A stretch of DNA of 64,000 bases. Source: an uncultured Actinomycetes bacterium (GTDB taxonomy: Bacteria > Actinomycetota > Thermoleophilia > UBA2241). A program made the translations under genes and the position numbers. Below are positions 36,215-64,000 of this stretch, one piece after another (within the stretch, counting starts at the first letter, position 1; every line of letters begins with the position of its first letter). The notes under the pieces are model-generated. The model worked only from the letters and a program-made list of their open reading frames with translations, was not told the DNA's origin and made no database searches. The DNA is taken from positions 224,001 to 288,000 of the forward strand of contig CAVRZA010000011.1 of assembly GCA_963725665.1 (NCBI GenBank), given 5' to 3'.

Positions 36215-36368
36215 CTCGCTCCCTCCCTCTGCTGCCCGGCCCGGCGGACGTGCGCCGAGCGTCACCTTCTCGGCGAAGTCATCCTCCGGCTGCATACTTC
36301 GCGCCTGCTCGCACACCCCTCACCACCAGCGAGTGGTCATAGGTCTCGCCCGTGATCGACGATGCCTC

Positions 36369-37715: not shown

Positions 37716-37748
37716 ACGAATCCCCGATCCCCTACGGTACTCATCCGA

Positions 37749-40138: not shown

Positions 40139-40383
40139 GGCCTCATCTCACCGTGCCCCTCCACCAGACAGCAAGCCGACTCCATTATCATCCAGGATAC
40201 CGGACGGGCTTCTTCACGGCACGCATTGTGTGAACGGACTCAAAGGCCTGCGTCACGGTCCTCGGCGTCGGTCACGGCGCCCAGTGCGGGTGTCGCCTGC
40301 CAAAGAACGGGGTGTCCCTCCCACGCGCATGGTGCGTTCTCTGTCGCTTGACGTATCACGCCCTCACCAGAAAGATGTGCACC

Positions 40384-41091: not shown

Positions 41092-41299
41092 GCAGACGGG
41101 GCGCTCGCAAAGAGTACCCCGAGCGGAGAGGGGGTGAGGGCCACCCAGGGCATCCACCGCACGTCCACGTGGTCTCGGCTGGCTGAGTGCGACCGGGAGC
41201 GGTCGCCAAAGCGACGTCGGCACGGGCAGATCGCCCACCGGCAGTCTCCAGGCGGCGACCGCGTTTCATCGGCAGGCGTCAGATGGAGGTGTCGTCGCA

Positions 41300-41938: not shown

Positions 41939-42037
41939 CGCGGCCGTTTCGGCCGTTGATGCGACGACCGGATGTCCACGCCGCGCGCGCTGAGGCGGGC
42001 ACCATCCGGCATCAGCACTGATGGGAGGAGCAACGAA

Positions 42038-43420: not shown

Positions 43421-43485
43421 ATCACGCTGGAGTGACCGGCCGGCTCTCGTGGGCCGGCGCTGTCCGGGCCGATCGCGAAGGAGCC

Positions 43486-47071: not shown

Positions 47072-48703
47072 TCACTCAGGCGGCAACTCGCCGTACGTCA
47101 TGGAGAGGTCCACGCCGACGGAGCGGCTGCGCGCTTTCCAGATGTAGTACCAGATGACGCCCAGCACCCAGACGCCGACGAACAGGTAGATCGATTCCGT
47201 GGTGAACTGGCGGGCGGCCTCGTTGAAGATGAACACGTAGAGCAGGATGAGCAGGTAGGCGATGTCGACCAGCGCCCCCCACACGATCACGGGCAGACCG
47301 AGGAAGCTCCACTTCTGGTAGGGCGAGGAGTCCCAGATGCCGCGCGCCCGCTTCATGTAGGGGAAGAGCAGGGCGGCGAACGCCGTGGGCAGGAAGACCG
47401 AGGTGACCTGCAGCCCCGTGACCACGACGTTCTGCATCACGGCGAAGCTGGAGAACGAGTAGATCACCAGGAGGATCTGGCTCAGCCCGAGGCAGAGGAT
47501 GTGGTTCTTCACCGGGCTGGCGAAGCGTGGGTTGATGTCGGTGAACCACTTGGGCCCCATGCGGTCCATGCCCCAGGCGAAGAGGATGCGCGGGAAGGCC
47601 AGATAGGAGAGCGCTAGCCACCACAGCGTGAAGCCGATGTAGGAGAGCGCCATCCACGCGGCCAGCACCTTGCCGAAAGCGCCGAGCGCCGCCGAGCTCG
47701 CCCCGAGGCAGTAGACGCCGAGCGAGATGAAGTCGCTCGCGAACGGCATGTTGTAGGTGTCGATGGCGCCGTTGTTGTCCATCCACGAGGCCGCCTGAAT
47801 GAACTGGTAGCCGGTCGTCTTGTTGACCACGATTGCGGTCCAGAACATGAAGATGAAGGGCACCACGATGGCGAACACGTTGGCCCAGATGATGGTCTTG
47901 TCGGGGCGCTTGACCTCGCCGGCGATGAACGAGATCGAGTAGGCGTAGGCGAACAGCCAGCTCATGACGACCATGGTGCCGAATGTCGCCCCCCAGCTCC
48001 AGCTGGTGGGCATGGCCTGCCCGGCCGCGTCACCGATCTGCTTGATGAACTCCGCGTAGCGCGGCGACTGCGTGGCGTCGGCGGCAGCGTTCCAGTTGGC
48101 GATGAAGGTGGCCTTGCTGGTGAAGGTGAACACCAGGGCGATGACGACGGCGCCGCCGATCGAGAAGAACATCACGAACTTCTGCGTGATGGCGAAGATC
48201 CGGATGCCGAAGACGACGAACAGGAAGCCCACGAAGTTGAAGAGGCTGGCGACCACGAAGATCAGCCAATTGCTGTTGGCGAGCTTGTCGGCCGCGCTCG
48301 TCCAGCCGATGTAGCTGAACATCACGGAGAGGCCCGTGTTGGCGATGAGCGGCGCCAGCACGTAGAGCCACATCAGCCAGATGACGGCGTCGCCGAAGCT
48401 CTGCGCGATGCCGAAGATGGGATGGATGATGCGCGAGTTGTAGATGTACTCGCCGCCCGAGCGCGGCATGCTGCCGCCCAGGACGCCCCAGACGATGGGG
48501 AAGCCGATACCGGCCATGATGAGCGAGATGACGGCGGCGATGACCAGGTTGCCGCCCAGAAAGACACCCAGGCCAAGCGTGAAGATCAGCCAGATGCTCG
48601 GCGTGATCCCCTGGTTCATGAAGCCGACGGCGAACGCGTCCATCATCGAGAGGCCGCGTACGAGTCCGCTGGCCTTGCGCGCGTAGGCAAACTCTTGAGG
48701 CAC
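47072..48703 (-). CDS. APC family amino acid/amine permease
   Basis: YARKASGLVR, MPRSGGEY, R.LFAWGMDR; about 12 TM segments; AGGAAGGGGG RBS. Confidence 0.9.
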   Translation of the reverse strand: MPQEFAYARKASGLVRGLSMMDAFAVGFMNQGITPSIWLIFTLGLGVFLGGNLVIAAVISLIMAGIGFPIVWGVLGGSMPRSGGEYIYNSRIIHPIFGIAQSFGDAVIWLMWLYVLAPLIANTGLSVMFSYIGWTSAADKLANSNWLIFVVASLFNFVGFLFVVFGIRIFAITQKFVMFFSIGGAVVIALVFTFTSKATFIANWNAAADATQSPRYAEFIKQIGDAAGQAMPTSWSWGATFGTMVVMSWLFAYAYSISFIAGEVKRPDKTIIWANVFAIVVPFIFMFWTAIVVNKTTGYQFIQAASWMDNNGAIDTYNMPFASDFISLGVYCLGASSAALGAFGKVLAAWMALSYIGFTLWWLALSYLAFPRILFAWGMDRMGPKWFTDINPRFASPVKNHILCLGLSQILLVIYSFSSFAVMQNVVVTGLQVTSVFLPTAFAALLFPYMKRARGIWDSSPYQKWSFLGLPVIVWGALVDIAYLLILLYVFIFNEAARQFTTESIYLFVGVWVLGVIWYYIWKARSRSVGVDLSMTYGELPPE

Positions 48704-48933
48704 GTTTCCCCCTTCCTACGTTCTCCCCTTGCCGGCCCGCCGCAGCCAGCGGTCCGACGGCTGTGCGACGTGCGCGAAGGAACGACAGGTCAGCCGATCA
48801 GCCTCCCTTCCTCGGTCACCCCGACCTGCACCGGCGACCGGTCAGACAGTACCGGAGCCTCCGCGGCACCGTCGTGGTCCCCGGTGCAGGCATGACGCAG
48901 CACGCCCCGGGCCCCCTGGCGGCCGCCCCCATC

Positions 48934-48954
48934 GATACCCTTGGTATCCATACC
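48934..48954. promoter_or_regulatory. candidate operator (overlapping inverted ATACC half-sites)
   Basis: GATACC-CTT-GGTATC and GGTAT-CC-ATACC in an AT-rich patch upstream of the permease. Confidence 0.4.
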
Positions 48955-49068
48955 TGTAGTAAGCCACTCAATGCAAGCCTTCGCACCAAGTCGCTTCGCA
49001 GTCAAGCACGTGAGCGTCCGTCTCGCATACGAGACGGAACGGCCGCCGCCTCACAGGCGCGGCCTGCG

Positions 49069-49902
49069 CTAGGCGCTCGTGTACCGCCCCAGCCGCAGGA
49101 TCTGCCGCGCCTCGTCGGGGGTGGCCGGCTCGCGGTTCCACTCGCGGGCCAGACGCACTACGCGCTCGACCAGCCGCGCGTTGCTCTCGGCGAGCACCTT
49201 CCTATGCAGGAAGATGTTGTCCTCGAACCCGAGACGCACGTTGCCGCCCAGGGCGAGGGCCGTCATCGTCACCGGCATATGCCAGCGCCCGATGCCCGTG
49301 CAGGTCCAGGTCGAGCCCTCCTTGGGTATCGAGTCGACGAGGAACATCAGGTTGCGCGGCTCTCCGCTCATCGAGCCCGGCACGCCGAGCACGAAGTCCC
49401 AGTGCAGCAGGGGGCCGGCCGGGCCCAGCCTCTCGACCAGCCGCAGCGCGTTGTCGATCTGTCCGGCCTCGAAGATCTCGAACTCGGGACGTACGCCGGC
49501 CGCCCGCTCGCGCTCATAGAACTCGCTCATGAGCGCCTGGTCGTTGAAGAAGACCTCGTCGCCGAAGTTGGCCGTGCCCGTCGTCAGCGAGGCCATCTCG
49601 GGCCTTAGTTCAAGCGGCTGCAAGCGCTCATCGGCCGTCATGCCCATGGCCCCGCCCGTCGAGGCCTGGATGATGATGTCGGTGCGCTTGCGGATCTCCG
49701 CGATGGCGGTGGCGAACACCTCGCGGTCCTGTGTGGGCGTGCCGTCGGGGCGCCGCACGTGCAGGTGGTACATCGCGGCGCCGGCCTCGCGGCAACGCGC
49801 CGCGTCGACGCCGATCTCCTCCGCAGTCACGGGGAGGTTGGGCTGCGCCTGCTTGGTCGTCTCGGCCCCCACGCCGGCGACCGTGATGATCAGGTCCCCC
49901 AT
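49069..49902 (-). CDS. kce: 3-keto-5-aminohexanoate cleavage enzyme (BKACE)
   Basis: LIITVA..GAE, GAAMYHLHVR, STGGA, PEMASL, RPEFEIFE.G, FVLGVPG, GGNVRLGFEDN. Confidence 0.9.
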   Translation of the reverse strand: MGDLIITVAGVGAETTKQAQPNLPVTAEEIGVDAARCREAGAAMYHLHVRRPDGTPTQDREVFATAIAEIRKRTDIIIQASTGGAMGMTADERLQPLELRPEMASLTTGTANFGDEVFFNDQALMSEFYERERAAGVRPEFEIFEAGQIDNALRLVERLGPAGPLLHWDFVLGVPGSMSGEPRNLMFLVDSIPKEGSTWTCTGIGRWHMPVTMTALALGGNVRLGFEDNIFLHRKVLAESNARLVERVVRLAREWNREPATPDEARQILRLGRYTSA

Positions 49903-49937
49903 GGCTTCTCCTTTGCGCGAAATGGCCGACGCGATTG

Positions 49938-51208
49938 CTAGCTCCCGGCCGGATACCGCTGCGCGACCACGCCTAGCGCCTCCTCGACCACCTCGAGGGC
50001 CCGCGTGAGGTCCTCCTCGGTGTGGCGGTAGGCGATGTACCAGTGATGATACGGCTGCACGAACAGACCGCGACGGATGCATTGCGTGTAGAACTCCGTG
50101 CGCCGCTCCCGGTAGTGCGTGTCGACCTTGTCGAAGGTGAGGAAGGGCATGGGCGGGATGCCGCTCTTGGTCACCGGCACCCCCGACTCGTCGACGATCG
50201 CGCCCAGCCGGTCGAGAAAGCGCGTGCCGCGCTCCCAGATAGCGTCCTGCACCTTCTCGCGCTCGAGGATGTCCATGCACGTCATCGCGGCGACCATCTC
50301 GAGGCTGTTGGGGAAGAAGGTCGAGCTCAGGAAGGCGTCCTTCAGATAGACGGAGAGGATCTCGCGCTTGCCCACCAGGGCGGCGATCGGGTAGCCGTTG
50401 GCCATCGCCTTGCCGACGCACGTCGCGTCGGGCACGATACCGTAGCGCTCCTGGGCGCCGCCCATGGCGACGCGGAAGCCGGTGCGGATCTCGTCGAAGA
50501 TCAGCACGGCGCCGTTCCTGTGGGTGATCTCCTTGACCTTCTCGAGATAGCCGTCCGGCGGCGCGACGACGGGAGCCGCCAGCGGGTGACCGACGGGGTG
50601 ATGATGACGCAGGCGACCTTGTCGGGGTTCTCGGCGAAGACGCGCTCGAGGTCGGCGACGTCGCCGTACTTGAACTCCTTGGTCAACTCGACCAGGGCGT
50701 GCGGCACGCCGCCGTGGTTCTCGACGCACCAGTCGCCCCAGCCGTGGTAGCCGCAGCGGGCGATGACGTCGCGGCCGGTGTAGGCGCGCGCCGCGCGCAC
50801 AGCGGCGTTGGTGGCATCGGAGCCCGTCTTGACGATGATCGTCTGCTCGCCGCAGGGCATCGTGTTCGCCAGCCGCTCCTCAAGCTCGTTCTGGACCGGC
50901 TGCACGAGGCTGAAGCAGAAGCCCTTGTCCATCTGCGCCTTGACGGCGTCGTTGATCTCGGGCTCGACGTAGCCGAGGATGATCGGCCCGTAGGCGCAGA
51001 GCATGTCGATGTACTCGTTGCCGTCGACGTCGAAGATGTGGCCGCCCTTGCCGTGGGTGATAAAGACGGGGTACTCGCCGATGACGAAGTTGTAAGGCCG
51101 GCGGATGCCGCCCACGCCGCCGGGGGTGAGGCGCTGCGCGTCCTCGAGCATGGCCATCGACCTATCGAGCTTGAGATGCGGCGCGCTGGGCACGGTTCTC
51201 TCGGCCAT
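49938..51208 (-). CDS. kat: 3-aminobutyryl-CoA aminotransferase-like class III aminotransferase (one frameshift near 50594)
   Basis: GIRRPYNFV.GEYP, KTGSDAT, GYHGW.DWC, FDEIR.GFR, GKAMANGY, FLSSTFFPNS, TEFYTQ.IR...VQPYHH. Resembles my recollection of the Cloacimonas Kat enzyme; adjacent to kce. Confidence 0.75.
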
Positions 51209-51540
51209 AAGACTCCTTTCCGCGAGGCGATCGGATTGCTCGTGGCGCCCCGCCTCATCCACCTTGCGCTGGCTAGTGGCGCCCACTCCCGCGGCCGCGC
51301 GGAGCGGGTGGCGCCAGGCCTGTCTCTGGGAGGCCGCAGGGCCGTCGCCGGTCGCCGGGATCGCGGCCGTGCGGCAGGTTGGACTCTACCTCATTTCACC
51401 GAGCGGTGTCTGCCGTCGTGGCCACAGCACCGGCACCCAGCCTGCAGCCGGTGCGCCAATCTGGCCATGCGTGCGCGCTCTTACCTCCATCGCTCTATGG
51501 ACCATCGCCGCCGCGGGCGCCCCCCAAGATGCACTTGGGC

Positions 51541-52461
51541 TCACGTCGGCGGGATCTCCTCTGCTGGTCCGCCGCGCACGACGATGAGGACGCCGGCGGC
51601 GATGATGAGCGCGCCGCCGGCGACGGTCCATGCCGACGGGACCTCGCCGAGAAGCAAGTAGGCGTAGAAGGGCCCCACCACGGGAGCCAGGTAGCCGAGG
51701 ATCGAGGCCTGCTGGACGGGGATGTGACGTACGCCCTCGAACCAGAGCGTGTAGGGGAACGCCGTGCAGCACAGGCCGAGGATCAGGCCGATGACGAGAT
51801 CGCGCCCGGTGAGCCTATAGTCCTGCGCACCGACCTGCCACAAGGCGAGCGGCAGCACGATCAGGGCGTCGAGCCCCATCTCGCTCAGCACGAGCATCGC
51901 GTTGCCGACCCGCGGCGTGAGCGCCTTCACGAGGATCGTATACAGGCCGAAGAGCGCGCCGGCGGCGACCCCGGCGAGGATGCCCGCCGTCGTGGCGTCC
52001 GCGCCGTGGCCGAGCAGTTCGGGCAGCACGATGGTAACCATGCCCACCAGGGCGATGGCCAGGGCCAGGTAGACCGTGCGGTCGCTCGGCTCGCCCAGGA
52101 GGCGCGGCGCGAGCAGCGCCACATACACCGGCGAGGTGTAAAGGAGAAACAGGCCCAACGCGACGTTCGTGCCGCGCACCGCGATGAAGAACAGCAGCAC
52201 CGCCGCCGCACTGCAGGCGCCCATGAGGAGCAGCCGCGCCGGCGTGCCCGGCCGGAACGCCTGCGCCAGTGTGCGGCGGCGCGCGAAGAGCGCCGCGACG
52301 ACGAGCACGCCGCTCCCCATGCGGAGCACCACGAGGACGCTCGCGGGAGCGTCGGCCATGCGCACCAGCACGCCCGAGAGGCCGACCACCAGCCAGGATC
52401 CGGCGACCAGGAGGTAGCCGCGGCGCGAAGAGGGGCGCGTCGGCGCTCCGCGCGCCGTCAC
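51541..52461 (-). CDS. DMT/EamA family transporter
   Basis: About 10 TM segments; LLYTSPVYVA, ASILGYLAPV, LLGE. Confidence 0.88.
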   Translation of the reverse strand: MTARGAPTRPSSRRGYLLVAGSWLVVGLSGVLVRMADAPASVLVVLRMGSGVLVVAALFARRRTLAQAFRPGTPARLLLMGACSAAAVLLFFIAVRGTNVALGLFLLYTSPVYVALLAPRLLGEPSDRTVYLALAIALVGMVTIVLPELLGHGADATTAGILAGVAAGALFGLYTILVKALTPRVGNAMLVLSEMGLDALIVLPLALWQVGAQDYRLTGRDLVIGLILGLCCTAFPYTLWFEGVRHIPVQQASILGYLAPVVGPFYAYLLLGEVPSAWTVAGGALIIAAGVLIVVRGGPAEEIPPT

Positions 52462-52490
52462 CGTGCCGTCCTGGACCGCCGCTTGGCTTC

Positions 52491-53492
52491 TCACGGCGGC
52501 ATCCCCTGGCCGGCGACGCCCGAAAGGAGGGGGCGCGCAGAGGCGCCTTCCTCGACCGCCGGCGTGGGCTCGGGTGCCCCGAAAACGATGATGAGCACTC
52601 CCGCGGCGATGATGAGGGCGCCGCCGGCGACGGTCCACGCCGAGGGACGTTGTCCGAGGAACACCAGTGCGAAGAGGGGCGCGCTCACAGGCTCGATGTA
52701 GCCCATGATCGAGGCGTGCTGCACCTTGACGTAGTGCATGCCGTCGAGGAACAAGCTAAACGACAGGGCCGTCATGACGAGACCCAGCAGGGCGGCCAGG
52801 AGCAGGTTGCGGGCCGTGAAATCGGCTGCCGGCGTCCGCCACAGCCCGAACGGCACCAGCACGACCGCCGTCACCACGCAGAGGGAGAAGACGATGCTGG
52901 TGCTGTGCAGGCCGCGGCGTCGCAGCTGCTTGGTCTGGAGCAGGTAGAGCGCGTAGAAGACGCCGGCGGCGAGGCCGGCGGCGAGGCCCCCGGCCGAGAG
53001 GCGGGCGCCGTCGCCGGCGAGCCCGGGCACGAGGATCAGCGCCATCCCGCCGACGGCCGCCGCCAGGGCGCCGTACACGACGCCCTCGGTGCGGCCGCCC
53101 TCGAAGCGGGGTCCCAGGAAGGCGACGTACACCGGCGCTAGATACGAGGTGAAGATGGCCACCGCCACCCCAGTCTCGCGTATGGCGACGAAGTAGAGCG
53201 AGAGGTTGGCGGCCAGCGTCAGCCCAGCGAGCAGCAGCCGCAGCGCGACACGCCGATCGCCGATCGAGGGCCAGTCGTGGCGCAGCGCGACGACGAGGCC
53301 GAGGGCGGCGGCGGCGAACACCATGCGCAAGCCGACGAGCATGACGACCGGCATCGTCGCCCACGTCACGACGACGCCGATGGCGCCGTTGATCAGCGCT
53401 CCCGTTCCCACCTCTGAGAAGCCGCGCAGACGGTGACCCCCCGGCCGTCCTCGCGATCTCAAGCGGGACCCCGTCGCGCCGCCATCCGTCAC
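52491..53492 (-). CDS. DMT/EamA family transporter
   Basis: YLAPVYVA, ASIMGYIEPV; paralogue of the adjacent gene. Confidence 0.88.
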   Translation of the reverse strand: MTDGGATGSRLRSRGRPGGHRLRGFSEVGTGALINGAIGVVVTWATMPVVMLVGLRMVFAAAALGLVVALRHDWPSIGDRRVALRLLLAGLTLAANLSLYFVAIRETGVAVAIFTSYLAPVYVAFLGPRFEGGRTEGVVYGALAAAVGGMALILVPGLAGDGARLSAGGLAAGLAAGVFYALYLLQTKQLRRRGLHSTSIVFSLCVVTAVVLVPFGLWRTPAADFTARNLLLAALLGLVMTALSFSLFLDGMHYVKVQHASIMGYIEPVSAPLFALVFLGQRPSAWTVAGGALIIAAGVLIIVFGAPEPTPAVEEGASARPLLSGVAGQGMPP

Positions 53493-55270
53493 GCGAAGGT
53501 CAGCGCCTGCGTGAACACCTCGTGGAACTTGGCGTGCGTCGCCAGCTCGAGGAAGGCGATGCGCCGGCGAAGCTCGGCGATGCGCTCGCGCTGACGCGTA
53601 TCGACGAGGGCCATCTGCGCCCCGACACCGGCCGCGTTGCCGACGAACGCGACACGCGACTTGGGCACCGGAGGCAGCAGGTCGATGGCGAGGGCGTTCT
53701 CGAGGTCGAGGTAGTTGCCGAAGGCCCCCGCGACGTAGACGTGGCGCAGGTCGTCGGGCGTCAGACCCTCGTGCTCGAGCAGCAGCGTCCAGCCGGCGCC
53801 GATGGCACCCTTGGCGAGCTGCAGGTTGCGCACGTCGTGCTGCGTGAACACGATCTCCCCGTGGGCTCCGTCGGTGAGCACGTACTCGAGCCCGTCGTCA
53901 GCCTCGCGCACGCGCTCGTGATCCGAGAGCATGCGCCCGCTCTTGTCGACGATGCCGCGCGCCACAAGGCCGGCGAGGATGTCGACCACACCCGAGCCGC
54001 AGATGCCGACCGGAGTCACGCCGCCGATCGTGCCGATGGCCGTGGGCATTCCTTCGGCGTCGAAGCTCACACGCTCGATGGCGCCCTCGGCCGCCTTCAT
54101 GCCACACTTCATCTGGTAGCCCTCGAAGGCGGGGCCCGAAGCGCAGCTCGTCGCGACAAGACGTCCCTCGTGCACGAGCACGATCTCGGTGTTCGTGCCG
54201 ATGTCGATCGCCGCGGCCGGCTCGCGTTTCGCTTCGAGGTGCGTCGCGGCGATCACCGCCAGACAGTCGGAGCCAACGAAGCCGGCGATGGGCGGCAAGA
54301 AGTAGACGCCGCCCTCGGGGTTCATGTCTATGCCGAGCTCGGCGGCGCGCAGGAGGAGCGGCCGATCGACGGCGGGCGCGAAAGGCGCGCCACCGAGGCC
54401 GACCGGAGAGATGCCCAGAGCCAGATGGTGCATCGCCGTGTTGCCCACGACGGTCATGTCGTAGACGTGGCGCGCCTCGATCCCCTGGCGCGCGTACAGG
54501 CTCGCGAGAGTCTCGTCGATCCCCTCGCGCGCCGCCCGCGCCAGGTCGCCGAGGCGCCCCTCGCGCATGGCCATGGTGATGCGCGTGATGACGTCTTCGC
54601 CGAAGCGCATCTGCGGATTCTCGACCGCCTCCTGGTCGACCTGGGCCCCGGCCGTCAGGTCGAACAGGTAGGTGATGATCTTCGAGGTGCCGATGTCGAC
54701 GGCGGCGCCGTAGACGTGCGGCGCGGCGCCGTCGGGCTCGACGTCGATCAGTGTGTCGCCGTAGCGTGTGACGACCGCCTCCCAGTCGCTCTCGCGCAAC
54801 GTGTCCGGGAGCGTGCGCAGCACCGTCAGCGGCACCTGACTTACACCGAGCTGCGTGCACAGGCGTTCGTCGTCGGAGGCCGCCGAGCCGAGCTCGGGCG
54901 GCGTCAGGCGCACGGCCTCCCTGACGACCGCCGAGCGCACCTCGCCGTGGTGCAGCCGGGAGGTCGTAAGGATCTGACGCCGCCCCTTCGCTTCACGCAC
55001 CTCGACGCTGACACGCTCACCACGCGCATACGCCTGGCAGGCGAGACGCCAACCTTCAGCGAGCAGCTTGGGCGAGAGGCGCTTGGCCTCCTCCTCGGTG
55101 GGAGAGCTGAGGTCGCCGGCGCCCAGCCGGACGAGGCACTTGCCGCAGGTGCCGCGGCCGCCGCAGGTCGCCGGCACCTCGATGCCGACCTTCGTGACGG
55201 CCGCCAGCAGGGGCTCGTCGGCGTCGAGCTCGACGGTGACGCCGATGGGCTCGATGAAGACCTTCGTCAC
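53489..55270 (-). CDS. RamA/RACE-type ATP-dependent corrinoid reductive activator ([2Fe-2S]-ASKHA)
   Basis: CGGRGTCGKC..RLACQ, VDIGTS, NPQ..FGEDVITRI, GFVGSD, DIGTNTE, GPAFEG, GICGSG, AGAFGNY, GNAAG.GA. Confidence 0.92.
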   Translation of the reverse strand: MTKVFIEPIGVTVELDADEPLLAAVTKVGIEVPATCGGRGTCGKCLVRLGAGDLSSPTEEEAKRLSPKLLAEGWRLACQAYARGERVSVEVREAKGRRQILTTSRLHHGEVRSAVVREAVRLTPPELGSAASDDERLCTQLGVSQVPLTVLRTLPDTLRESDWEAVVTRYGDTLIDVEPDGAAPHVYGAAVDIGTSKIITYLFDLTAGAQVDQEAVENPQMRFGEDVITRITMAMREGRLGDLARAAREGIDETLASLYARQGIEARHVYDMTVVGNTAMHHLALGISPVGLGGAPFAPAVDRPLLLRAAELGIDMNPEGGVYFLPPIAGFVGSDCLAVIAATHLEAKREPAAAIDIGTNTEIVLVHEGRLVATSCASGPAFEGYQMKCGMKAAEGAIERVSFDAEGMPTAIGTIGGVTPVGICGSGVVDILAGLVARGIVDKSGRMLSDHERVREADDGLEYVLTDGAHGEIVFTQHDVRNLQLAKGAIGAGWTLLLEHEGLTPDDLRHVYVAGAFGNYLDLENALAIDLLPPVPKSRVAFVGNAAGVGAQMALVDTRQRERIAELRRRIAFLELATHAKFHEVFTQALTFA

Positions 55271-55309
55271 GGCGTCGCCGCTGTCGCCGCGACCCTCGTC
55301 ACCGCAGTC

Positions 55310-56608: not shown

Positions 56609-56745
56609 GTCGTCGTCTCCTATCTCGCGGGAGCCTCGCCCTCGGCTCCGCTGCCCTGGCCCGAATCTCTCTCATACGAGGCGTGCCGGCGTAAGAAGTG
56701 GGTCAGCACGCAGAGGTCGTCAGGGGCCGCGAAGGCCCTTTGGGG

Positions 56746-58276
56746 TCACAGACCGGAAGTGGCGATGATGCGCGCCAGGGTCTCCGCCTTCTCGGCTTCG
56801 AGGGGCGGGACGCGGTGCTCCGCAAGGATGCGCGCCGCGAGCTCCTCCGCCTTGCGCTCGGAGCCGACCCTGCCCTCGCGCTGCCACGCTTCGAGCGAGC
56901 TGCGGTCGAAGACGCGCGGACGCCACACATCGCGCATGTGGCGGCGCGTGTGCCTCTGCGCGAGGGCGTTGCCCCCGATCCCGACGGCGGCAATCGTCTC
57001 CTGCGCCATAGTCTCCTCGTCGACCTCTATGCCTTCGGCGATGCGCGCGCACACGGCGCGCGACTCGCAATCCAGAACGAGCTGCCCCGGCGAAAAGGCG
57101 CGGCCACCGGCGAGCAGGCCCGCGCCCATCAGCAAGGCTGGGATCCCCAGGGCCGTGATCAGTGTGGCGAACGTAGTCTCCACCGACGAGCGCCACCCCG
57201 GCTGTGCCGCCCCTGCGGTCGCCGGCGCGATCAGCGACGGCAGCCCGAACGAGCTCATCAGCTCATTGTACGCCAGCGCGAGGAGCCAGGCGCGGGGGGC
57301 GTCGGTGAGGTCGGCCGGGGGCGACCACGGGGCGTCCTCCGTAGGGCTCGCGATGAAGGTCGTGCCTGGCGCGACGAGCTGCACGACGGCGCAGGCGGCG
57401 AGGGCGCTCGCGGCCCGCCGGGCGAGGCGCTCGCCGAGGCCGCCGGCCGCGGCGAGCGCCTCGCCCCCGGTCGTCGCTGGAGCTGATCCTGCGGCGCCGG
57501 ACGTATCGCCCAGCGCGAGCGCGAAGCCCACCGGCAGGCCGCGCCGGGCGGCCACGAGAAGCGCGTCGACCGCCGACGCGGCGGCAAGCTGGCCCGGCGC
57601 TACCAGCGACACGGGTGGTCGGCGGCGCAGCACCTCGTCGCCAGCGACCGCCGCCGCCATGGCGGCCACCGCCTCGGCCTGCGCCGGCGAATCGACCGTC
57701 GTCAGCATGACGTGCTTCGTCGTGTTGGCGAGGCACACCTCCAGCTCTTCGGCGACGGCTCTGCCAGGCCTTCGGGCGGCGAGAGGCGCGCCCGCCGCCG
57801 CGCCACCGCGCGCAAGGGCGAGCGGCGGCCCGGCGACGAGGGCGACCTCGGGCAGCCCGTCGGCAAGTCGACAGGCCTCGGCGAGGTCGCTGCGCTCGGC
57901 GGGCCGCCGCTCGCCGCCGGCGGCAAGCAGCTCGGCCGCCGGTCCGCCGGTCGCCAGCAGGGCAGCTCCGCCCGAGCACGACGTCGCACTCCGGCACCCG
58001 TCCGCCGAGCACCGGGGTGGTCGACGCGAGCGCGAGCGCCTCTTCGATCAGGCGCGCCGGAGGCCGGGCGAGACCCGTCAACTGATCGAGCGGCACGCCG
58101 GCGTCGGCGAGGGCCGCGCGCGCGCGCTCGCCGGGCACGACGACGCCGCGTGTCTCGAGCAGGCGCAGCGCCTCGGCGCGCAGCCACGCGAGCTCCGCCG
58201 AGCCGAGGGCGCGCAGGGCCAGACGGCCCTGCGCGCCCACGGCCGCCGTCTCCGCTCGCGACCCGTTCCCGGTCAC
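56746..58276 (-). CDS. degenerate MttB-superfamily paralogue (frameshift near 57965)
   Basis: GTG overlaps the upstream stop; CLANTTKHV, FSPGQLVLDCE, VGIGGNALAQRHTRRH; very Ala-rich with an eroded core. Confidence 0.7.
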
Positions 58277-59745
58277 GTCGCCGCCAGAGCCTCCGCGTCG
58301 GCGCGCGCCACGATGCGCGCAAGCTCGGCTTGCGCGTCGTCGGGCAGCGGCTCCGGCCGGTGGTTCTCGAGGATGTCGGCCGCGACGGCCGTCGCCCTCT
58401 CGAGGGCGCCGGCCTTGCCGGCCGCGAGCCACTGGTCGTAGGTCGAGCGGTCCCACACCGCCGGGCGCCAGATGTCCTTCATGTGCCGTCGGGTGTGCTT
58501 CTCGGCCAAGTAGGTGCCGTTGGGGCCGATCTCCTTGATGACGTCGAGGGCCAGCGTCTCGTCGTCGACGACGATGCCCTCGGCCATCCTCTGCACGATG
58601 CCGTATATCTCGCACTCCATCACCATGTGCGGATACGAGAGGATCTTGGAGCCGTTCAGAAGACCCGTCCCGTTCATCATGTCGGCCACCGTCATGACGC
58701 TGGCGAAGGTCGAGAGCGAGTCGTCGACGGCGGCCTGCCAGTCGGGCTCCTTGGCGCCCGTCGCCATGGTGCCAATGGCCATGGGTAGACCGTAGAAGTG
58801 CGCCAGCTGGGTCGCCGCGGCGGCAAGGAGGTAGTCCTCGGGACTGCCGCCGGTGTAGCCGCCGGTCTTGAGGTCGATGACGCTGGGGGCGCCGGAGAAG
58901 AACGCCGGACAGCCCGGGTAGGCCAGCTCGAGGAGCACCACGCCTGAGAGGGCCTCGGCGTTCTGCACGACGAGGTTGCCGGCGAGCGTCGCCGGCGCCG
59001 TTCCGCACGACAGGGGCATGGGCATGAAGCCGCTGGCGAGGCCGTATTCGGCCGCGACCAGGTTGGCGTCGAGGTTGGGTCCGTCGTGGGCCAGGGGATC
59101 GACCGCGCACTGCATGAAGCTCACGATGGGCCGCCGCCGCAGCTCGTCGGTGCCGCCGACGATGGCGGCGGCCATCTCGACCACGGCGCGAGCCGCCTTC
59201 TCGCCGACCGTGGTCACCGCCTGATAGTGCTTCGTCGTGTTGTTGAGCACCGCCTCGGAGTCGTGCAACGCCTTGGTGGCGGGTGGCACGTCCTGCGAGG
59301 TGACGATCGGTCCCCAGTAGTAGGAGACGTTGGGCAGCGCGTCCACGAACCGAGCTGACTCGGCGGCGTCGGCCTTCGTCGAGGGGCGCTTCTCACCGCT
59401 GCGCGGATCGAGCACGAAGACACCCGAGGCGTCGTTGGAGAGGTAGCAGTGCCGGCCGTCGATGAGCAGGTCGCAGGCGCGATCGCGGGCCGCGAGCACG
59501 TACTCCCTGGGCGCCCATGACGCGGCCTCCATGACGATCGCGCGCGGCAGGCGCACGACACTCGTCGCGCGGTCGACGCGGCAGCCGCCCTTCTCGAGTG
59601 CGTCGAGCGCGCGCGCCGAGGGGAAGTGGACACCGGTCTCCTCGAGGACCTCGAGAGTGGCGTCGTGGATGCGTTCGATGTCGGACGGCGAGAGCACCTC
59701 CCAGCGGAGGCGGGGGACGATGGGGTTGATCCTCGGGGCAGTCAT
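58273..59745 (-). CDS. mttB: MttB superfamily methyltransferase, pyrrolysine-free
   Basis: IHDATLEVLEETGV, NTTKH, GTAPATLAG, TGAKEPDWQA, IGPNGTYLAEKHT; no TAG. Confidence 0.92.
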   Translation of the reverse strand: MTAPRINPIVPRLRWEVLSPSDIERIHDATLEVLEETGVHFPSARALDALEKGGCRVDRATSVVRLPRAIVMEAASWAPREYVLAARDRACDLLIDGRHCYLSNDASGVFVLDPRSGEKRPSTKADAAESARFVDALPNVSYYWGPIVTSQDVPPATKALHDSEAVLNNTTKHYQAVTTVGEKAARAVVEMAAAIVGGTDELRRRPIVSFMQCAVDPLAHDGPNLDANLVAAEYGLASGFMPMPLSCGTAPATLAGNLVVQNAEALSGVVLLELAYPGCPAFFSGAPSVIDLKTGGYTGGSPEDYLLAAAATQLAHFYGLPMAIGTMATGAKEPDWQAAVDDSLSTFASVMTVADMMNGTGLLNGSKILSYPHMVMECEIYGIVQRMAEGIVVDDETLALDVIKEIGPNGTYLAEKHTRRHMKDIWRPAVWDRSTYDQWLAAGKAGALERATAVAADILENHRPEPLPDDAQAELARIVARADAEALAAT

Positions 59746-59961
59746 CGGACGGCGACCTCATATCTCGGACAGGCGGACGCGTCGGAACGGGGCACGGGCT
59801 GCGGCCGCCGCGCACGGCCGGGCGCGGCGGCCCTCGCCGCTACGCGGCGAAGGTGCGGTAGATGTGGCTGATCGAACCGGCGACCACGGCCGTCACTCTA
59901 CCATGTCAGCGGGCCGCACGCGTGTGCGGTACAGTACCCAGAGGACCCCCGGGAGGATGGC

Positions 59962-61050
59962 ATGAAGCTGGTCGCCGACTGCGAGAAGATCCGTCAAAAC
60001 GCCCGCGCCGTCGTCGAGCTGTGCGCCACGCACGGCATCGAGGTCGCCGGGGTGACGAAGTGCTGTTGCGGCGAGCCCGAGGTGGCCCGCGCCATGCTGG
60101 CGGGGGGCTGCACCATGCTCGCCGACTCCCGCCTCGCCAACGTGGCGCGCATGCGCGACGCCGGCATCGACGCTCCCATCATGCTCCTGCGGCTCCCGTC
60201 GCTGAGCGAAGCCGACGAGGTGGTCAGGCTCACCGACTACAGCCTCAACAGCGAGGTCGAGACGGTCAGGGCGCTGTCGCACGCGGCGCTGCGGGCCGGC
60301 GCGACGCACGCCGTCGTCCTCATGGTCGACACGGGCGACCGGCGCGAGGGCGTGCAGCCCGAGCGTGTCGTCGGGGTCTGTCGCGAGCTCCTCGAGCTGC
60401 CGGGAATCGACCTCGCCGGTCTGGGCACGAGCCTCAACTGCCTCTGCGGCGTCTGCCCGACGCCGGAGAACCAGCAGCGCTTCGCCGACATCGTCGAGGA
60501 GACCGAGGCGGAGCTGAGCGTCCGCTTCCGCCTTGTGTCGGGTGGCCACACCGGCAACCTGCACCTGGTGCAGAAGGGTCTCGTGCCGGCGCGCTTCAAC
60601 CACTTCCGCGTCGGCGAGGCCATCCTCACCGGCACCGATTTCTCCACCTGGGCCGAGCTGCCCGTGCCCTACATGGACACCTTCAAGGTCTACGCCGATG
60701 TCGTCGAGCTGCAGGACAAACCCTCCGCACCCGAGGGCACGATCGGGCCCGATGCCTTCATGGAGGTGCACGAGTGGCCCGACCGCGGCGTGCGCCGCAG
60801 GGCCATCGTGGCTCTGGGCGAGATCGACCTGCGCACGCGGAGCCTCATCCCGACGCGCCCCGGGATCGAGCTCGTAGGGGCGAGCTCCGACCACCTCGTG
60901 CTCGACGTGACCGAGGCGGAGCCCCCGATACGCCTGGCCGAGGAGCTCGAGTTCGACACCATCTACCCGGCCGTCTCCACGGGCTGGGCGAGCTCCTGCA
61001 CGACGAAGATCGTGCTGCCCATCAAGGAGTCGGCGACGCTACAGCGCTGA
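59962..61050 (+). CDS. alanine/ornithine racemase family PLP enzyme (Orr-like)
   Basis: GGAGG RBS; GVTK, DSR..N, SLNSE, GDRREG, VSGG, FRVGEAIL.G, GASSDH. Confidence 0.88.
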   Translation: MKLVADCEKIRQNARAVVELCATHGIEVAGVTKCCCGEPEVARAMLAGGCTMLADSRLANVARMRDAGIDAPIMLLRLPSLSEADEVVRLTDYSLNSEVETVRALSHAALRAGATHAVVLMVDTGDRREGVQPERVVGVCRELLELPGIDLAGLGTSLNCLCGVCPTPENQQRFADIVEETEAELSVRFRLVSGGHTGNLHLVQKGLVPARFNHFRVGEAILTGTDFSTWAELPVPYMDTFKVYADVVELQDKPSAPEGTIGPDAFMEVHEWPDRGVRRRAIVALGEIDLRTRSLIPTRPGIELVGASSDHLVLDVTEAEPPIRLAEELEFDTIYPAVSTGWASSCTTKIVLPIKESATLQR

Positions 61051-61085
61051 CGGCCGGGCGGGGGCGGGCGCGCCGCCGCCGTGAG

Positions 61086-61994
61086 TCACTGCCCCGTGAG
61101 CTGCGCGATGGCCTCCTCGAACTCGGGCACGCCGCTGGCGGGCGGCTGCGACGCGTCGAGGCCGTACCACTCCTTCGTCATCGCGGTCAGCGACCCGTCC
61201 GCGCGCATCTTCTTCACAGCGTAGTTGAGAAGCGCGAGGAGATCGGCCTCGCCCTTGCGGGTCGCGAAGCACATCGCCTCGTAGTAGAAGGCCTGACCGG
61301 AGAGCTGCACAGGCTTGCCGCTCGCGATCGCCCGCTGCGCTGTGAGATCAGCGGTCATGACGCCATCGACGCGACCCGAGACGAGGGCGTGCAGGGCGCC
61401 GGCAGAGGTGTCGTAGGTCGCGATCTGCACCCCGCCCACCGCCTGCAGGAAGGTCTGGTAGGTCGTGGCCGCGCCCACGCCGATGCGCGCGCCTTTCAGC
61501 GCAGCGACGGTAGTGATAGCGGCAGAGCCCTGGCTCACGACGACCTGGCCCTGCGCGTAGTAGTAGGGGTCGGCCATGGCCACCTGCTTCAGATTGTCGG
61601 CCGTGCGTGTCATCGAGCCGATCGAGACGTCGAAGCTGCCACCCTTGAGACCCGCGGGCACGCCGGCCCAAGCCGGGTGGACGAACTTGAGCTGCACGCC
61701 CAGCAGCTCGGCGACCTTCTCGGCCACATCGACGTCGAAGCCGATGAGCTTACCGTCCTCTTCGTAGCTCTGCGGCGGATAATCGGCATCGTTGGCGACG
61801 ACGATCTGCCCGGTCCGCGCGATCTTCGCCGCCGCCCCCCTCGGCGCGTGGCCGAGGATCTGCTCGACGGTGCTGCCCTCTGCCTTGGGCGAGCTGCTCG
61901 TGCCCGGGATCAAGCTGCACGCCGCCAGCGCCACGGCGGACCCTACGACGCCGGCCAGCACGGCCACCGCCATGAACGCCCTACTCTTCTTCAT
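61086..61994 (-). CDS. polar amino acid ABC substrate-binding lipoprotein (family 3)
   Basis: LAAC lipobox; DADYPP, GFDVDVA, MRADG....KEWYG. Confidence 0.9.
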   Translation of the reverse strand: MKKSRAFMAVAVLAGVVGSAVALAACSLIPGTSSSPKAEGSTVEQILGHAPRGAAAKIARTGQIVVANDADYPPQSYEEDGKLIGFDVDVAEKVAELLGVQLKFVHPAWAGVPAGLKGGSFDVSIGSMTRTADNLKQVAMADPYYYAQGQVVVSQGSAAITTVAALKGARIGVGAATTYQTFLQAVGGVQIATYDTSAGALHALVSGRVDGVMTADLTAQRAIASGKPVQLSGQAFYYEAMCFATRKGEADLLALLNYAVKKMRADGSLTAMTKEWYGLDASQPPASGVPEFEEAIAQLTGQ

Positions 61995-62203
61995 GATCCT
62001 TTGCTTTCGTTGCGATGCCTCCACCCGGTCCGCGCGGCGAGGACTGCCGGTGATGAACCCCCCCAGACTCCACTGAGTCGATGTCGCGTCCGCTCGTTAG
62101 ACGCAGCCAACGCGTGTCATCATGCGGGACTCTTACACCCACAGATCGATGTGACAAGCAGGGCGGCACCCCTTCGCCAGCGCACGAAGATGCGAAAGTC
62201 CCG

Positions 62204-63559
62204 CTATGCCACACCTTCGACCAAGCGTCTCAGCTCCTCGTCGAGCGCTTCGTCGAGCCGCGGCGGCAGGTGCGTGGCAAGGAGGTCGCGGACCCATTCC
62301 TCCGGTCCCTTCGACCCTTCGGCGCGCCCGGCCGCGCCCTCCCCGAAGTCTCGCGCGTAGACCACGAGGCGCGGCGCGACTGACGGACGATCGGTCGCGC
62401 CGGAGACCAAGGCGCGCGCCAGGCCGGCGATCTCGGCGCCGAGCAGCATCTCGGAGTATGAGAAGACACGGCCGCCGGCCACCATGCCGACCCCGGTGAG
62501 CATGTCGACGCCGGCCATCATCGAGACGAAGGTCGTGGTCACATCCTCCATGGCGGTCTGCCACCCCGGCTCCTTGGCTCCTGAGGCGTTGACGCCGCAC
62601 TGCGTGGGCAGCCCGTAGAACTCACCGATGTCGGCGGCGGCGGCGCCCATCAGGGTGTCCTCAGGGGCGCCGCCGGTAAAGTCGCCGGTCTTCAGGTCCA
62701 TGATGCTCGGGATCAGACAGATGAAGACGGGACACCCCGGGTGCGCCGCCTGCACCACGGCCACGCCGGCGAGGGCCTCGGCGATGCCGACGACGAGCGA
62801 ACCCGCCATCGTGATCGGCGTCGTCGAACCCCCCATCGGCATGGTGACGAAGCCGACGGGGATACCGGCGGCGGCGAAGACAAGCGCCGCCTCGAGAGTG
62901 CCTTCGTCGTTGCCCAGTGGCGTGACCGTGCCCAACAAGGCCGAGATTGGCGGGTGCTCGCGCGCCTCGCGCTCGCCGCCCACCACGACGCGGGCGATCT
63001 CGACCGCCGCGCGCGCCTGGACCAGGTCCACGACGGTCACCGTCTGCACGTGCTTGCCGGTGTTCGCCAGGGCCAGGTAGAGCTCGTCTAAGCCGCGGCG
63101 CTCGACCGGCCGATCCTGGGCGCTCACCGCCGGCCAGCAGAAGTCGACCTCATCGAGCGCGTCGGCGAGGCGGGCGATGGCCGCCACGTCGGCCGCGGCC
63201 GTCGCCCGCCTCACGCCGCTCTCGAGGTCGTAGATCTCGCTAGGGCAGCCGTCGGTCGTGACGAGCGCACCCCCGGCGGTCGACAGGTGGCGGCCGGAAC
63301 GCGCGCCGAGGGTAAGGTGACGGGGCGCCCGCCCCACGAGCTCGCGCGTCAGTTCCGGCGGGAAGAGGACCCGCTCGCCGTCGACGCGCGCCCCGGCCGC
63401 CGCCACCGCCTCACGGGCGCGTGCCGAAGGGACGGCGATGCCGGTCGTCGAGAGGACCTCGAGGGCGGCCGCATCGAGCTGCTCGAGGTCTGGCCGCGCC
63501 AGGATGTGCAGACGTCGGAGCCGCACGTCACCGAAAGGGCGCGGTGGTCTCGCGGTCAC
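62204..63559 (-). CDS. mttB: MttB superfamily methyltransferase, pyrrolysine-free, shortened C-terminus
   Basis: NTGKH, VTPL, STTPITMAG, SGAKEPGWQ; lacks the usual GPGG.FL..HT segment; start uncertain. Confidence 0.85.
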   Translation of the reverse strand: MTARPPRPFGDVRLRRLHILARPDLEQLDAAALEVLSTTGIAVPSARAREAVAAAGARVDGERVLFPPELTRELVGRAPRHLTLGARSGRHLSTAGGALVTTDGCPSEIYDLESGVRRATAAADVAAIARLADALDEVDFCWPAVSAQDRPVERRGLDELYLALANTGKHVQTVTVVDLVQARAAVEIARVVVGGEREAREHPPISALLGTVTPLGNDEGTLEAALVFAAAGIPVGFVTMPMGGSTTPITMAGSLVVGIAEALAGVAVVQAAHPGCPVFICLIPSIMDLKTGDFTGGAPEDTLMGAAAADIGEFYGLPTQCGVNASGAKEPGWQTAMEDVTTTFVSMMAGVDMLTGVGMVAGGRVFSYSEMLLGAEIAGLARALVSGATDRPSVAPRLVVYARDFGEGAAGRAEGSKGPEEWVRDLLATHLPPRLDEALDEELRRLVEGVA

Positions 63560-63606
63560 TGTCCCGACGACGCAGCCGCACGCGGGCCGCGTGCGCGCCT
63601 CGACGC

Positions 63607-64000
63607 CTACGTGCCGGCGCGCCCGCGTGCGGGCGCGCCACGGCCTGTCCGACCCTCCGCTGGCTCGCCTTCGCCAGCCCCCCCGACCGCGGCCGGCTCC
63701 ACAGCCTGCGTGAGCGACGCGACCAGCGGCTGCGCGAGACGGAGCAGGTCCTCGCTGCGCATCTTGAGCATAGTGGTCGTCGTACCGCCGCCGCAGTAGA
63801 CGATGGGGCGCGTGAACACCTCGGGGTCGGCGAACGTCACGATCTCCACGGCGAGGCCGCACGGCGGCAGGGCGCCGGCCCTGAAGCCGGTGATCTGCAA
63901 CACCTCGAAGGGCCGGGCCAGGACCACATCGGAGCAGCCGCTCACGCTGCGGATGAGCTCCGGGCTCGCCTGGCGGTCGCCGGGGACGAGCACGAGCGCG
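63607..64000 (-). CDS. YbaK/EbsC aminoacyl-tRNA deacylase-like protein, C-terminal part
   Basis: LVLVPGDR, LA...EV..ITGF..GALPP.G, VYCGGG. Confidence 0.8.
   Translation of the reverse strand, partial: ALVLVPGDRQASPELIRSVSGCSDVVLARPFEVLQITGFRAGALPPCGLAVEIVTFADPEVFTRPIVYCGGGTTTTMLKMRSEDLLRLAQPLVASLTQAVEPAAVGGAGEGEPAEGRTGRGAPARGRAGT

Follow-up and report, generated by a model that had tools for sequence, protein, structure and literature searches.

A stretch of 64,000 nt (the window; positions 224,001 to 288,000 of contig CAVRZA010000011.1, GenBank assembly GCA_963725665.1) from an uncultured Actinomycetes bacterium of the class Thermoleophilia carries, between positions 47072 and 63559, a locus in which genes of lysine fermentation (kamA, a kat-like and a kce-like gene) are interleaved with three genes for methyltransferases of the MttB family that are free of pyrrolysine (Pyl), and with the gene for a corrinoid activator. 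This arrangement is best explained by a lysine fermentation of the Kat variant that is split over two operons, the locus serving as its entry module and being joined to a module for corrinoid-dependent demethylation. Each of the enzyme families is known already; the novelty lies in their combination, which two phyla have conserved and which implies a new class of substrate for the MttB superfamily. As to that substrate, we tentatively propose that the MttB paralogues demethylate methylated lysine and that the freed lysine is fermented via KamA, a reading which we consider close to evenly balanced, if just on the doubtful side.

The locus and its gene order

The genome of the window (G000) spans 3.73 Mb in 12 contigs, of which C2, C6 and C11 are named below; the G+C content of the window is 66-73%. 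Open reading frames (ORFs) in the window were assigned by Pfam and NCBIfam profile scans, with the curated NCBIfam cut-offs as equivalog thresholds. The run, read from the dnaA side, is composed as follows (window coordinates, strand, product, profile evidence).

62204-63559, minus: mttB3, Pyl-free MttB-family methyltransferase; PF06253 227.8 bits, profile positions 27-403
61086-61994, minus: family-3 solute-binding protein (SBP; SBP_bac_3), polar/cationic amino-acid type; PF00497 112.6 bits
59962-61050, plus: Orr-like racemase, alanine-racemase fold; PF01168 104.9 bits
58273-59745, minus: mttB2, full-length Pyl-free MttB; PF06253 329.5 bits, profile positions 30-498
56746-58276, minus: mttB', divergent MttB paralogue, frame broken once; PF06253 109.4 bits (C-terminal part)
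55310-56608, minus: kamA, lysine 2,3-aminomutase; TIGR03820 573.6 bits, Pfam LAM_C and Radical_SAM
53489-55270, minus: RACo-type corrinoid activator; Fer2, RACo_linker, Raco_middle, RACo_C_ter
52491-53492, minus: EamA/DMT transporter of the type with 10 transmembrane segments, two EamA domains; PF00892 100.5 bits, two stretches
51541-52494, minus: second EamA/DMT transporter; PF00892 105.3 bits
49938-51208, minus: kat-like HemL-type class-III aminotransferase, frameshifted; PF00202 in two frames
49069-49902, minus: BKACE (kce-like); PF05853 322.1 bits
47072-48703, minus: APC-family amino-acid permease; PF13520 49.3 bits, no NCBIfam hit

The ORF and profile scans bear out the gene order, the strands and the junctions given in the original prediction, including the start/stop overlaps of mttB2 with mttB' (58273/58276; the GTG start of mttB' at 58276 overlaps the mttB2 stop) and of the RACo gene with the first EamA gene (53489/53492). 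There is a third overlap, where GTG at 52494 of the second EamA gene lies on the stop of the first. The intergenic gaps between mttB' and kamA and between kamA and the RACo gene measure 137 and 39 bases, respectively, and mttB2 and the racemase gene are transcribed divergently. Past 63559 follow sortase, moeA, thiamine and dnaA/dnaN genes, so that the cluster ends there. The APC permease, which had been counted as a member of the locus, has to be taken out of it: it has no counterpart in any of 160 related loci and is only co-oriented.

Recurrence of the MttB-kamA linkage

The related loci (L-numbers) comprise 80 genome loci retrieved with KamA and 80 metagenome loci retrieved with MttB2, using an alignment of MttB2 orthologues. 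The synteny on which the original prediction had staked itself does recur: MttB and kamA genes are linked throughout one Thermoleophilia family and in a lineage of Bacillota. The KamA loci closest to that of the window occur in Thermoleophilia metagenome-assembled genomes (MAGs). Among the 30 closest (29 from Actinomycetota/Thermoleophilia and one from Chloroflexota), an MttB gene lies within 5 kb of kamA in 27, a RACo gene directly follows kamA in 28, and EamA, kat and kce genes are present in 26, 19 and 17, respectively, with many contigs ending early. An MttB gene within that distance is missing from three loci: L025, with a second kamA located beside kamE and a racemase gene; L039, which starts inside kamA; and L046, the Chloroflexota locus, which has a canonical cluster. 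L025 and L026 stem from the same Actinomycetota MAG with two kamA copies, L026 being the one in an MttB-RACo-EamA-kat-kce cluster. Among the other 50 KamA loci, an MttB gene is located no more than 5 kb from kamA in L088 (Bacillota) only and at a distance of 9 kb in L059 only; kamD is found in 29 of the 50 and kdd in 35.

Viewed from the side of MttB2, 65 loci encode a protein at least 66% identical to it, and KamA is present in all 18 of these that extend for at least 4.5 kb downstream. Twelve further loci are 51-55% identical to MttB2. KamA is encoded 182-329 nt upstream in six of them (L176-L179, L182, L183), and in three the flank is too short to judge. The Bacillota-type cluster, as defined by L088 and these six, consists of a transporter gene (APC or NhaC-type) and genes for a small GNAT protein, KamA, a first MttB (MttBa), a corrinoid protein and a second MttB (MttBb). 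A corrinoid protein gene and then the second MttB gene follow the MttB2-like gene in 7/7 Bacillota-type loci, often along with a second corrinoid protein gene. L183 and L177 both have genes for a sigma-54 activator and two NhaC-type transporters upstream; in L183, the downstream flank also encodes, at a distance of about 5 kb, a pterin-binding methyltransferase. The GNAT gene lies directly upstream of kamA in all six loci reaching that far. Its product (147-161 aa) weakly resembles streptothricin acetyltransferases (35-46 bits, well short of the cut-offs), and in NCBIfam it has no match to the AblB model, only weak generic GNAT hits. Thermoleophilia loci have as many as about five MttB genes in the cluster, and Bacillota loci have two beside kamA; several paralogues in both lineages are what sequential demethylation would need.

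We inferred a quick maximum likelihood tree from 27 MttB sequences of the window's own genome and nine from related loci. In it, the L020 orthologue groups with MttB2, and the sister of the two is the pair of Bacillota MttBa sequences (SH-aLRT 99), with the 26 other placed paralogues of the genome outside this clade; mttB3 and mttB' belong to the same wider group as the MttB2 clade, with weak support (81-84). In the KamA tree, the Thermoleophilia proteins, including the kamE-linked L025, make up a long-branched clade of their own, and the MttB-linked KamAs of Bacillota nest among canonical KamAs of Bacillota and Chloroflexota. Judging from these trees, KamAs of two separate lineages are linked to a single MttB clade: sister groups on the MttB2 side go with KamAs that are not sisters, and the linkage has therefore arisen, or been retained, on two occasions.

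Within the class, KamA (E <=1e-60) was detected in 29/35 sampled genomes of the window's family, in 2/35 of one other family and in 0/130 of the remaining families. As the Thermoleophilia loci all belong to one family, they amount to one evolutionary event, the Bacillota lineage being the second. KamD scores above its cut-off in 66/81 genomes of the window's family, and kamA and kamD are 35-75 kb apart in those sampled relatives where they occur on one contig. In G001, a Bacillota genome, no KamA but the MttB-linked one exceeds the cut-off, and kamD (850.8 bits) and a BKACE gene are on other contigs. Thus, in G000 as in G001, the sole kamA sits among MttB genes, apart from kamDE.

KamA and the lysine fermentation pathway

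The original prediction took KamA for a lysine rather than a glutamate 2,3-aminomutase, and this is well supported. The protein exceeds the threshold of the lysine 2,3-aminomutase equivalog TIGR03820 (573.6 bits, cut-off 525.4) and remains below those of the glutamate (483.8 bits, cut-off 650) and arginine (432.4 bits, cut-off 600) models. Compared with structure 2A5H (545.8 bits), it has kept Asp293, Asp330 and Lys337 as well as the radical-SAM CxxxCxxC motif; the two Asp residues are those that bind the epsilon-ammonium group of lysine, and Lys337 is the lysine that holds pyridoxal 5'-phosphate (PLP). We also looked for an altered specificity of the MttB-linked KamAs and rejected it: only three positions differ from canonical KamAs in both linked groups, and two of these are conservative changes of V to I or C beside the Asp330 equivalent, in unlike directions.

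The rest of the pathway is encoded in the same genome, where kamA is single-copy (one tblastn match). A tblastn search with the cluster proteins of C. ihumii located kdd (58% identical), kamD (55%), kamE (50%) and a kamB-like gene, all at C11:328-334 kb. There, 48 kb from the locus, a second operon comprises, in the order given by Pfam, a YheO-type regulator, a kamB-like gene, kamD, kamE, a thiolase gene and kdd; KamD matches PF09043 at 776 bits and KamE consists of OAM_dimer and B12-binding domains. The same search did not find kal in the genome. With KamA, kamB/D/E, thiolase and kdd but no kal, the genome is therefore equipped for the Kat variant of lysine fermentation, and kamA, kce and kat retain the role first proposed for them. 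The notion that the locus is not concerned with lysine fermentation, with kamDE and kdd presumed absent, was discarded, since both are found in the second operon.

In the Kat variant (PMC3149608), the HemL-like aminotransferase Kat replaces Kal, its gene adjoins a thiolase gene in 'Ca. Cloacamonas', and the enzyme was active on CoA esters only; a 60%-identical homologue exists in an organism that does not ferment lysine. The kat-like gene of the locus has its best NCBIfam matches with GSA-aminomutase models, all under the cut-offs, and is 60-66% identical to the kat genes in the kat-kce-kamA-kamDE-kdd clusters L081 and L096. By analogy with the Kat of PMC3149608, it is a candidate for a 3-aminobutyryl-CoA aminotransferase. 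The BKACE protein reaches 374.8 bits with NF052387 (cut-off 382) and is 50.5% identical to Kce of C. ihumii, to which the other three BKACE paralogues of the genome are 37-42% identical. On this sequence evidence, the family assignments of the locus Kce and Kat and of the thiolase are probable.

The genome thus shares with the Kat-variant fermentation (PMC3149608) the genes kamA, kamDE, kdd and kce, a HemL-like kat instead of kal, and a thiolase gene. The difference lies in the arrangement, in two operons 48 kb apart, and in the interleaving of the kamA-kat-kce half with MttB genes, a RACo gene and EamA transporter genes. In other phyla, kat occurs in 5/50 of the KamA loci (L081, L089, L091, L095, L096), beside kdd and kamDE and without MttB.

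The MttB paralogues

As predicted, the three MttB paralogues are Pyl-free: an in-frame stop is absent from mttB3, mttB2 and mttB', and the position of Pyl aligns to an Ala in MttB2, unlike six MttB genes elsewhere in the genome, each with a single in-frame TAG (Pyl-type). None reaches the TIGR02369 cut-off of 525 bits (MttB2, 458.8; mttB3, 281.8; the L020 orthologue of mttB', 220.8). The best-conserved methyltransferase of the cluster is that encoded by mttB2, with orthologues in relatives that are 75-93% identical. In the alignment, mttB3 is shortened in its C-terminal region, where about 35 residues around the HTRRHM segment are missing; its orthologues, at 52-82% identity, adjoin the SBP gene in L028, L029 and L041, and are next to it also in L105, L124, L126, L133, L143, L148, L149, L159, L161 and L168.

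The putative substrate pocket of MttB2 was compared with that of MtgB of D. hafniense, the MtgB positions being read from a HMMER alignment to 2QNE (2QNE index = MtgB number + 16). In PMC13080624, MtgB is described as binding glycine betaine via Y97 and F356 (cation-pi) and via R312 and H348 (carboxylate), and R312 is stated to be conserved in MtcB, MtpB, MthB and MtyB. Unlike MtgB, MttB2 keeps none of the four residues, the Arg included: the positions of Y97, R312, H348 and F356 are occupied by A, A, N and S, and those from R312 onwards do not vary within the MttB2 clade, Bacillota members included. Nor is there an Arg at the R312 position in mttB3 (Q), the mttB' orthologue (L), the middle paralogue (F) or the Bacillota MttBb (H). 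As far as can be read from the alignment, these residues argue against a short carboxylated betaine; they do not thereby identify the substrate.

The genome contains 31 PF06253 matches, corresponding to about 29 genes scattered over 6/12 contigs. A further Pyl-free MttB gene in the window (6146-7567, plus strand) is located between an aldehyde:ferredoxin oxidoreductase gene and a histidine-ammonia-lyase-like gene (270.9 bits with the hutH model, below the cut-off; the three span 4059-9378). By analogy with its neighbourhood, this MttB could act on an amino-acid betaine such as hercynine.

Activator, corrinoid proteins, transporters and racemase

The activator had been labelled RamA; it is instead an ATP-dependent reductive activator with the architecture of RACo, comprising an ASKHA C-terminal domain, middle and linker domains and an N-terminal 2Fe-2S domain (PF14574 275.8, PF17651 170.8, PF17650 45.8 and Fer2 51.3 bits), and falls below the cut-offs of both the RamA (124.4 bits, cut-off 500) and the AcsV model (408.8 bits, cut-off 800). 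Genome-wide, only two RACo-type (PF14574) genes stand against about 29 for MttB, and the locus RACo is therefore probably a general activator that serves many methyltransferase systems.

No gene for a corrinoid protein or for a methyl-corrinoid:tetrahydrofolate (THF) methyltransferase is present in 47072-64000 or in the next 20 kb. The nearest corrinoid protein gene (41138-41935) is paired with an MtmB homologue, in a plus-strand group (40234-44856) of a helix-turn-helix/cupin regulator gene, the corrinoid protein gene, the MtmB-family gene and a class-III aminotransferase gene. The MtmB-family gene (41960-43417) is full-length and without an in-frame stop (PF05369, 298 bits; no NCBIfam hit); a recent study reportedly ties a non-pyrrolysine MtmB homologue to the use of tetramethylammonium and choline in a methanogen. 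Genome-wide, there are 27 matches to the B12-binding domain, roughly a dozen or more of which are candidate corrinoid proteins. Acetyl-CoA synthase (ACS/CdhC) is encoded at C2:411109-411567, beside the second RACo and a pterin-binding methyltransferase; ACS/CdhC and such methyltransferases are possible acceptors of methyl groups.

With its MttB set, acetyl-CoA synthase and PylD (C6:343844-344635, 211.6 bits), the organism is therefore an anaerobic methylotroph; from its predicted gene content, G000 is a pyrrolysine-using, methyl-group-specialised anaerobe within the Thermoleophilia. This fits a report on a thawing mire in which Actinobacteriota express Pyl-type mttB and mtbB (PMC10805028).

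The SBP gene starts with ATG at 61994, with AAGGA upstream, and its product has a signal-peptide-like N-terminus. The protein scores 132.8 bits with the Lys/Arg/Orn model TIGR01096 (cut-off 256), and among solved structures it is closest to proteins that bind arginine or are of the Gln/Arg type. In the window, genes for an ABC permease or ATPase are not found next to it. The racemase, 327.9 bits with the Orr model NF040742 (cut-off 480), has counterparts (63-88% identical) that flank the cluster in L020, L021, L023 and L024, and the copy in L025 lies between kamE and kamA. On sequence grounds, the SBP would be of the alpha-amino-acid-binding type and the racemase is probably one for basic amino acids (Lys/Orn), so that both fit a basic amino acid. 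The first EamA protein matches TIGR00950 at 110.3 bits, below the cut-off, and relatives have between two and seven tandem EamA copies.

Frame breaks in mttB' and in the kat-like gene

The gene content of the run stands, but two of its genes, mttB' and the kat-like one, are frameshifted in the assembly, each at a single place. An alignment with four orthologues shows that one base is missing from a run of C near 50597 in the kat-like gene, both pieces of which are 82-84% identical to the intact 422-aa orthologue in L020. In mttB', the frame switches near 57970-57995: about 95 N-terminal codons are in one frame and the rest, from about 57969, in another. The N-terminal piece aligns to residues 13-87 (E 1e-8) and the C-terminal piece from residue 97 onward of the L020 orthologue, which is an intact ORF of 457 aa (PF06253, 180.6 bits). 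Since split genes are also common in long-read relatives and affect 3 of about 29 MttB genes of the genome, we lean towards assembly indel errors, as this distribution suggests, rather than locus-specific decay. The two other split MttB genes, each over two frames, are at C2:256560-257952 and C6:547665-548898. All 20 public sequencing runs that contain the stretch do so with a share of <=0.17, and no RNA run is among them; contigs from four of these runs are short and derive from related strains, none of them bridging the break in kat or in mttB'.

Proposed route and alternative explanations

In the route that we propose, lysine methylated at the side-chain nitrogen (tri-, di- or mono-methyl-lysine) would be taken up through the SBP and the EamA transporters. 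The MttB paralogues, MttB2 leading, would then methylate a Co(I) corrinoid protein encoded elsewhere, which the locus RACo would keep reduced, and the methyl groups would pass to THF and into the acetyl-CoA synthase pathway, for which the genes are present. KamA, by family a lysine 2,3-aminomutase, would convert the freed lysine to beta-lysine. KamDE and Kdd, encoded 48 kb away, would act next, and the probable Kce and Kat of the locus, with the thiolase encoded beside kamDE, would lead to acetyl-CoA. The racemase would bring in D-lysine. Of the methyl-lysine reading as originally predicted, the lysine-fermentation genes, the recurring linkage and a pocket unlike that of MtgB have held up; the locus lacks a self-contained methyl-transfer set.

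Several observations weigh against this reading. Gene neighbourhood alone points to methyl-lysine as the putative substrate, and with about 29 MttB genes in the genome, some chance adjacency to amino-acid genes is expected. Only two independent linkage events are known, the Thermoleophilia loci counting as one. In L170, L181 and L184, with at least 1.3 kb of upstream sequence, there is no KamA gene upstream of an MttB gene whose product is 52-55% identical to MttB2 and 61-65% identical to the Bacillota MttBa. The window cluster has neither its own corrinoid protein nor a methyl-corrinoid:THF methyltransferase, and RACo, one of two for all the MttB genes, may be a housekeeping activator merely residing here. 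KamA displays no clear change in specificity, Kce scores slightly under its cut-off, and mttB' and the kat-like gene are frameshifted in the assembly. Moreover, characterised non-Pyl MttB enzymes take one methyl group from a quaternary amine, and we know of no description of an MttB-family enzyme that demethylates tertiary or secondary amines.

Some of these points would equally suit a co-location without a shared substrate, in which the MttBs demethylate betaines or choline-type amines within a co-regulated island for amine and amino-acid catabolism, general activator included. The scatter of MttB genes over half of the contigs, other MttBs that adjoin genes for amino-acid enzymes (e.g., 6146-7567), the two RACo genes for all systems and the missing corrinoid protein agree with such an island, as does the fact that relatives differ in how many MttB and EamA genes the cluster has and in whether it includes racemase and SBP genes. 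We nonetheless regard it as unlikely, if quite credible, because the same MttB clade is tied to KamA in a second phylum, with a different KamA lineage and different transporters, and because in both phyla the genome's only true kamA has left kamDE for MttB genes. The tight packing of the genes, with three overlaps (mttB2/mttB', RACo/EamA and EamA/EamA) and gaps of 137 and 39 bases on either side of kamA, also counts against mere co-location. Clearly less probable is the reverse order of events, in which lysine that is still methylated would be the substrate of KamA, possibly also of the aminotransferase and BKACE, and the MttB2 clade would then demethylate a beta-lysine derivative or, further down the route, a trimethylammonio acid like gamma-butyrobetaine, N6-methylation taking the role that N6-acetylation has in the acetyl-beta-lysine route. 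Streptothricin acetyltransferases acetylate an amine of beta-lysine, and the small GNAT paired with KamA in Bacillota is weakly similar to them; kat and kce are not near the Bacillota cluster. The BKACE and class-III aminotransferase families include members with other substrates, the 60%-identical Kat homologue from outside lysine fermentation among them (PMC3149608), and Kce stays slightly below its cut-off. On the other hand, kce and kat are both missing from the kamDE-thiolase-kdd operon, which therefore needs those of the locus, and the locus BKACE is the paralogue nearest to true Kce. KamA nests with the ordinary kamE-linked paralogue L025 and keeps the canonical active site, and the activity reported for Kat is limited to CoA esters (PMC3149608).

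That beta-lysine made by KamA would modify MttB proteins, as a pyrrolysine-like adduct or cofactor, instead of being a catabolic intermediate, is very improbable. The idea draws on an analogy, as pyrrolysine derives from lysine, and on the GNAT gene beside kamA in Bacillota; the Thermoleophilia clusters have no GNAT gene, KamA is co-operonic with kat and kce and is the only KamA for a complete fermentation pathway, and the genome already has a Pyl system. A link of the locus to pyrrolysine biosynthesis was considered as well and rejected, KamA being a lysine 2,3-aminomutase at equivalog level and PylD being encoded elsewhere. Returning to demethylation ahead of fermentation, its boldest form would make the MttB2 clade the first corrinoid-dependent N-epsilon-trimethyl-lysine methyltransferases, with tandem paralogues that strip di- and mono-methyl-lysine without pyrrolysine, and methyl-lysine, free or derived from protein, a complete substrate for both methylotrophy and fermentation where soils and sediments are anoxic; we deem this somewhat unlikely.

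Relation to known systems

The earlier statement that no pathway with this gene combination has been described agrees with the literature searched, in which we found no paper linking MttB-family enzymes to lysine aminomutase or to methyl-lysine, although the comma in "2,3-aminomutase" may blunt the search for aminomutase with corrinoid protein. The choline enzyme of Eubacterium limosum is reportedly a non-pyrrolysine methyltransferase of the MttB superfamily. Other members are MtgB (glycine betaine), MtcB (carnitine), MtpB (proline betaine) and MtyB (gamma-butyrobetaine) (PMC13080624). The window locus resembles such systems by PF06253 proteins without an in-frame UAG and by its corrinoid activator, and the Bacillota version also by the MtxB-MtxC pairing and the pterin-binding methyltransferase encoded about 5 kb downstream. 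It is unlike them in having lysine-fermentation genes and EamA, APC or NhaC-type transporters as neighbours, whereas BCCT transporters are known from the described systems, and in its several tandem paralogues without a corrinoid protein gene in the window cluster.

Methanogens demethylate methylamines stepwise, using MttB, MtbB and MtmB with RamA. The system proposed here would likewise employ separate methyltransferases successively on one nitrogen, along with a reductive activator, and G000 also has six Pyl-type MttB genes and PylD. The candidates of the locus, however, all belong to one family, MttB, and are without pyrrolysine; the amine would be the side chain of an amino acid, and the demethylated product would itself be fermented. 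As regards the Bacillota-type cluster, pairs of KamA and an acetyltransferase are known for beta-lysine from AblA/AblB of methanogens and yodP-kamA of Bacillus subtilis. The GNAT gene directly upstream of kamA is reminiscent of these, but its product is short (147-161 aa) and has no match to the AblB model, and the window cluster has no such gene.

For most non-pyrrolysine MttB clades the substrate is not known, and those solved to date have each brought to light a new anaerobic way of using a methylated amine. The locus offers a specific candidate, methylated lysine, backed by gene linkage in two phyla. If it is the substrate, methyl-lysine would join those of anaerobic methylotrophy, one-carbon and amino-acid fermentation pathways would be fused in one operon, and MttB-family enzymes may act on tertiary or secondary amines, beyond quaternary ones. 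Trimethyl-lysine is a reported dietary precursor of trimethylamine; anaerobes would then consume this precursor without releasing trimethylamine. A demethylating route of this kind is of interest to gut-microbiome research and to the study of carbon and nitrogen cycling in wetlands, where Actinomycetota have been reported to express methyltransferase genes (PMC10805028).

Other features of the window and its genome

A search of the window with Rfam at gathering thresholds matched two tRNAs only and found no lysine or cobalamin riboswitch; a scan for promoters and terminators gave nothing usable, all seven terminator-like sites falling inside genes. In L020, kce is followed by a GGDEF gene, which in the window is located 14 kb further on (32475-34754). 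Compared to L020, the genes at 34826-40147 (minus strand), encoding a class-III aminotransferase, a PaaK-like AMP-binding enzyme and a protein like indolepyruvate/pyruvate:ferredoxin oxidoreductase, together with those at 40-47 kb, constitute an insertion between kce and the GGDEF/UPF0182 genes. Lastly, one ORF about 1.6 kb from dnaA (C11:291003-292439; 4003-5439, minus strand, in L001) joins a thiamine transporter domain (Thia_YuaJ) to domains of thiamin pyrophosphokinase, as the result either of a fusion or of one more frame artefact.

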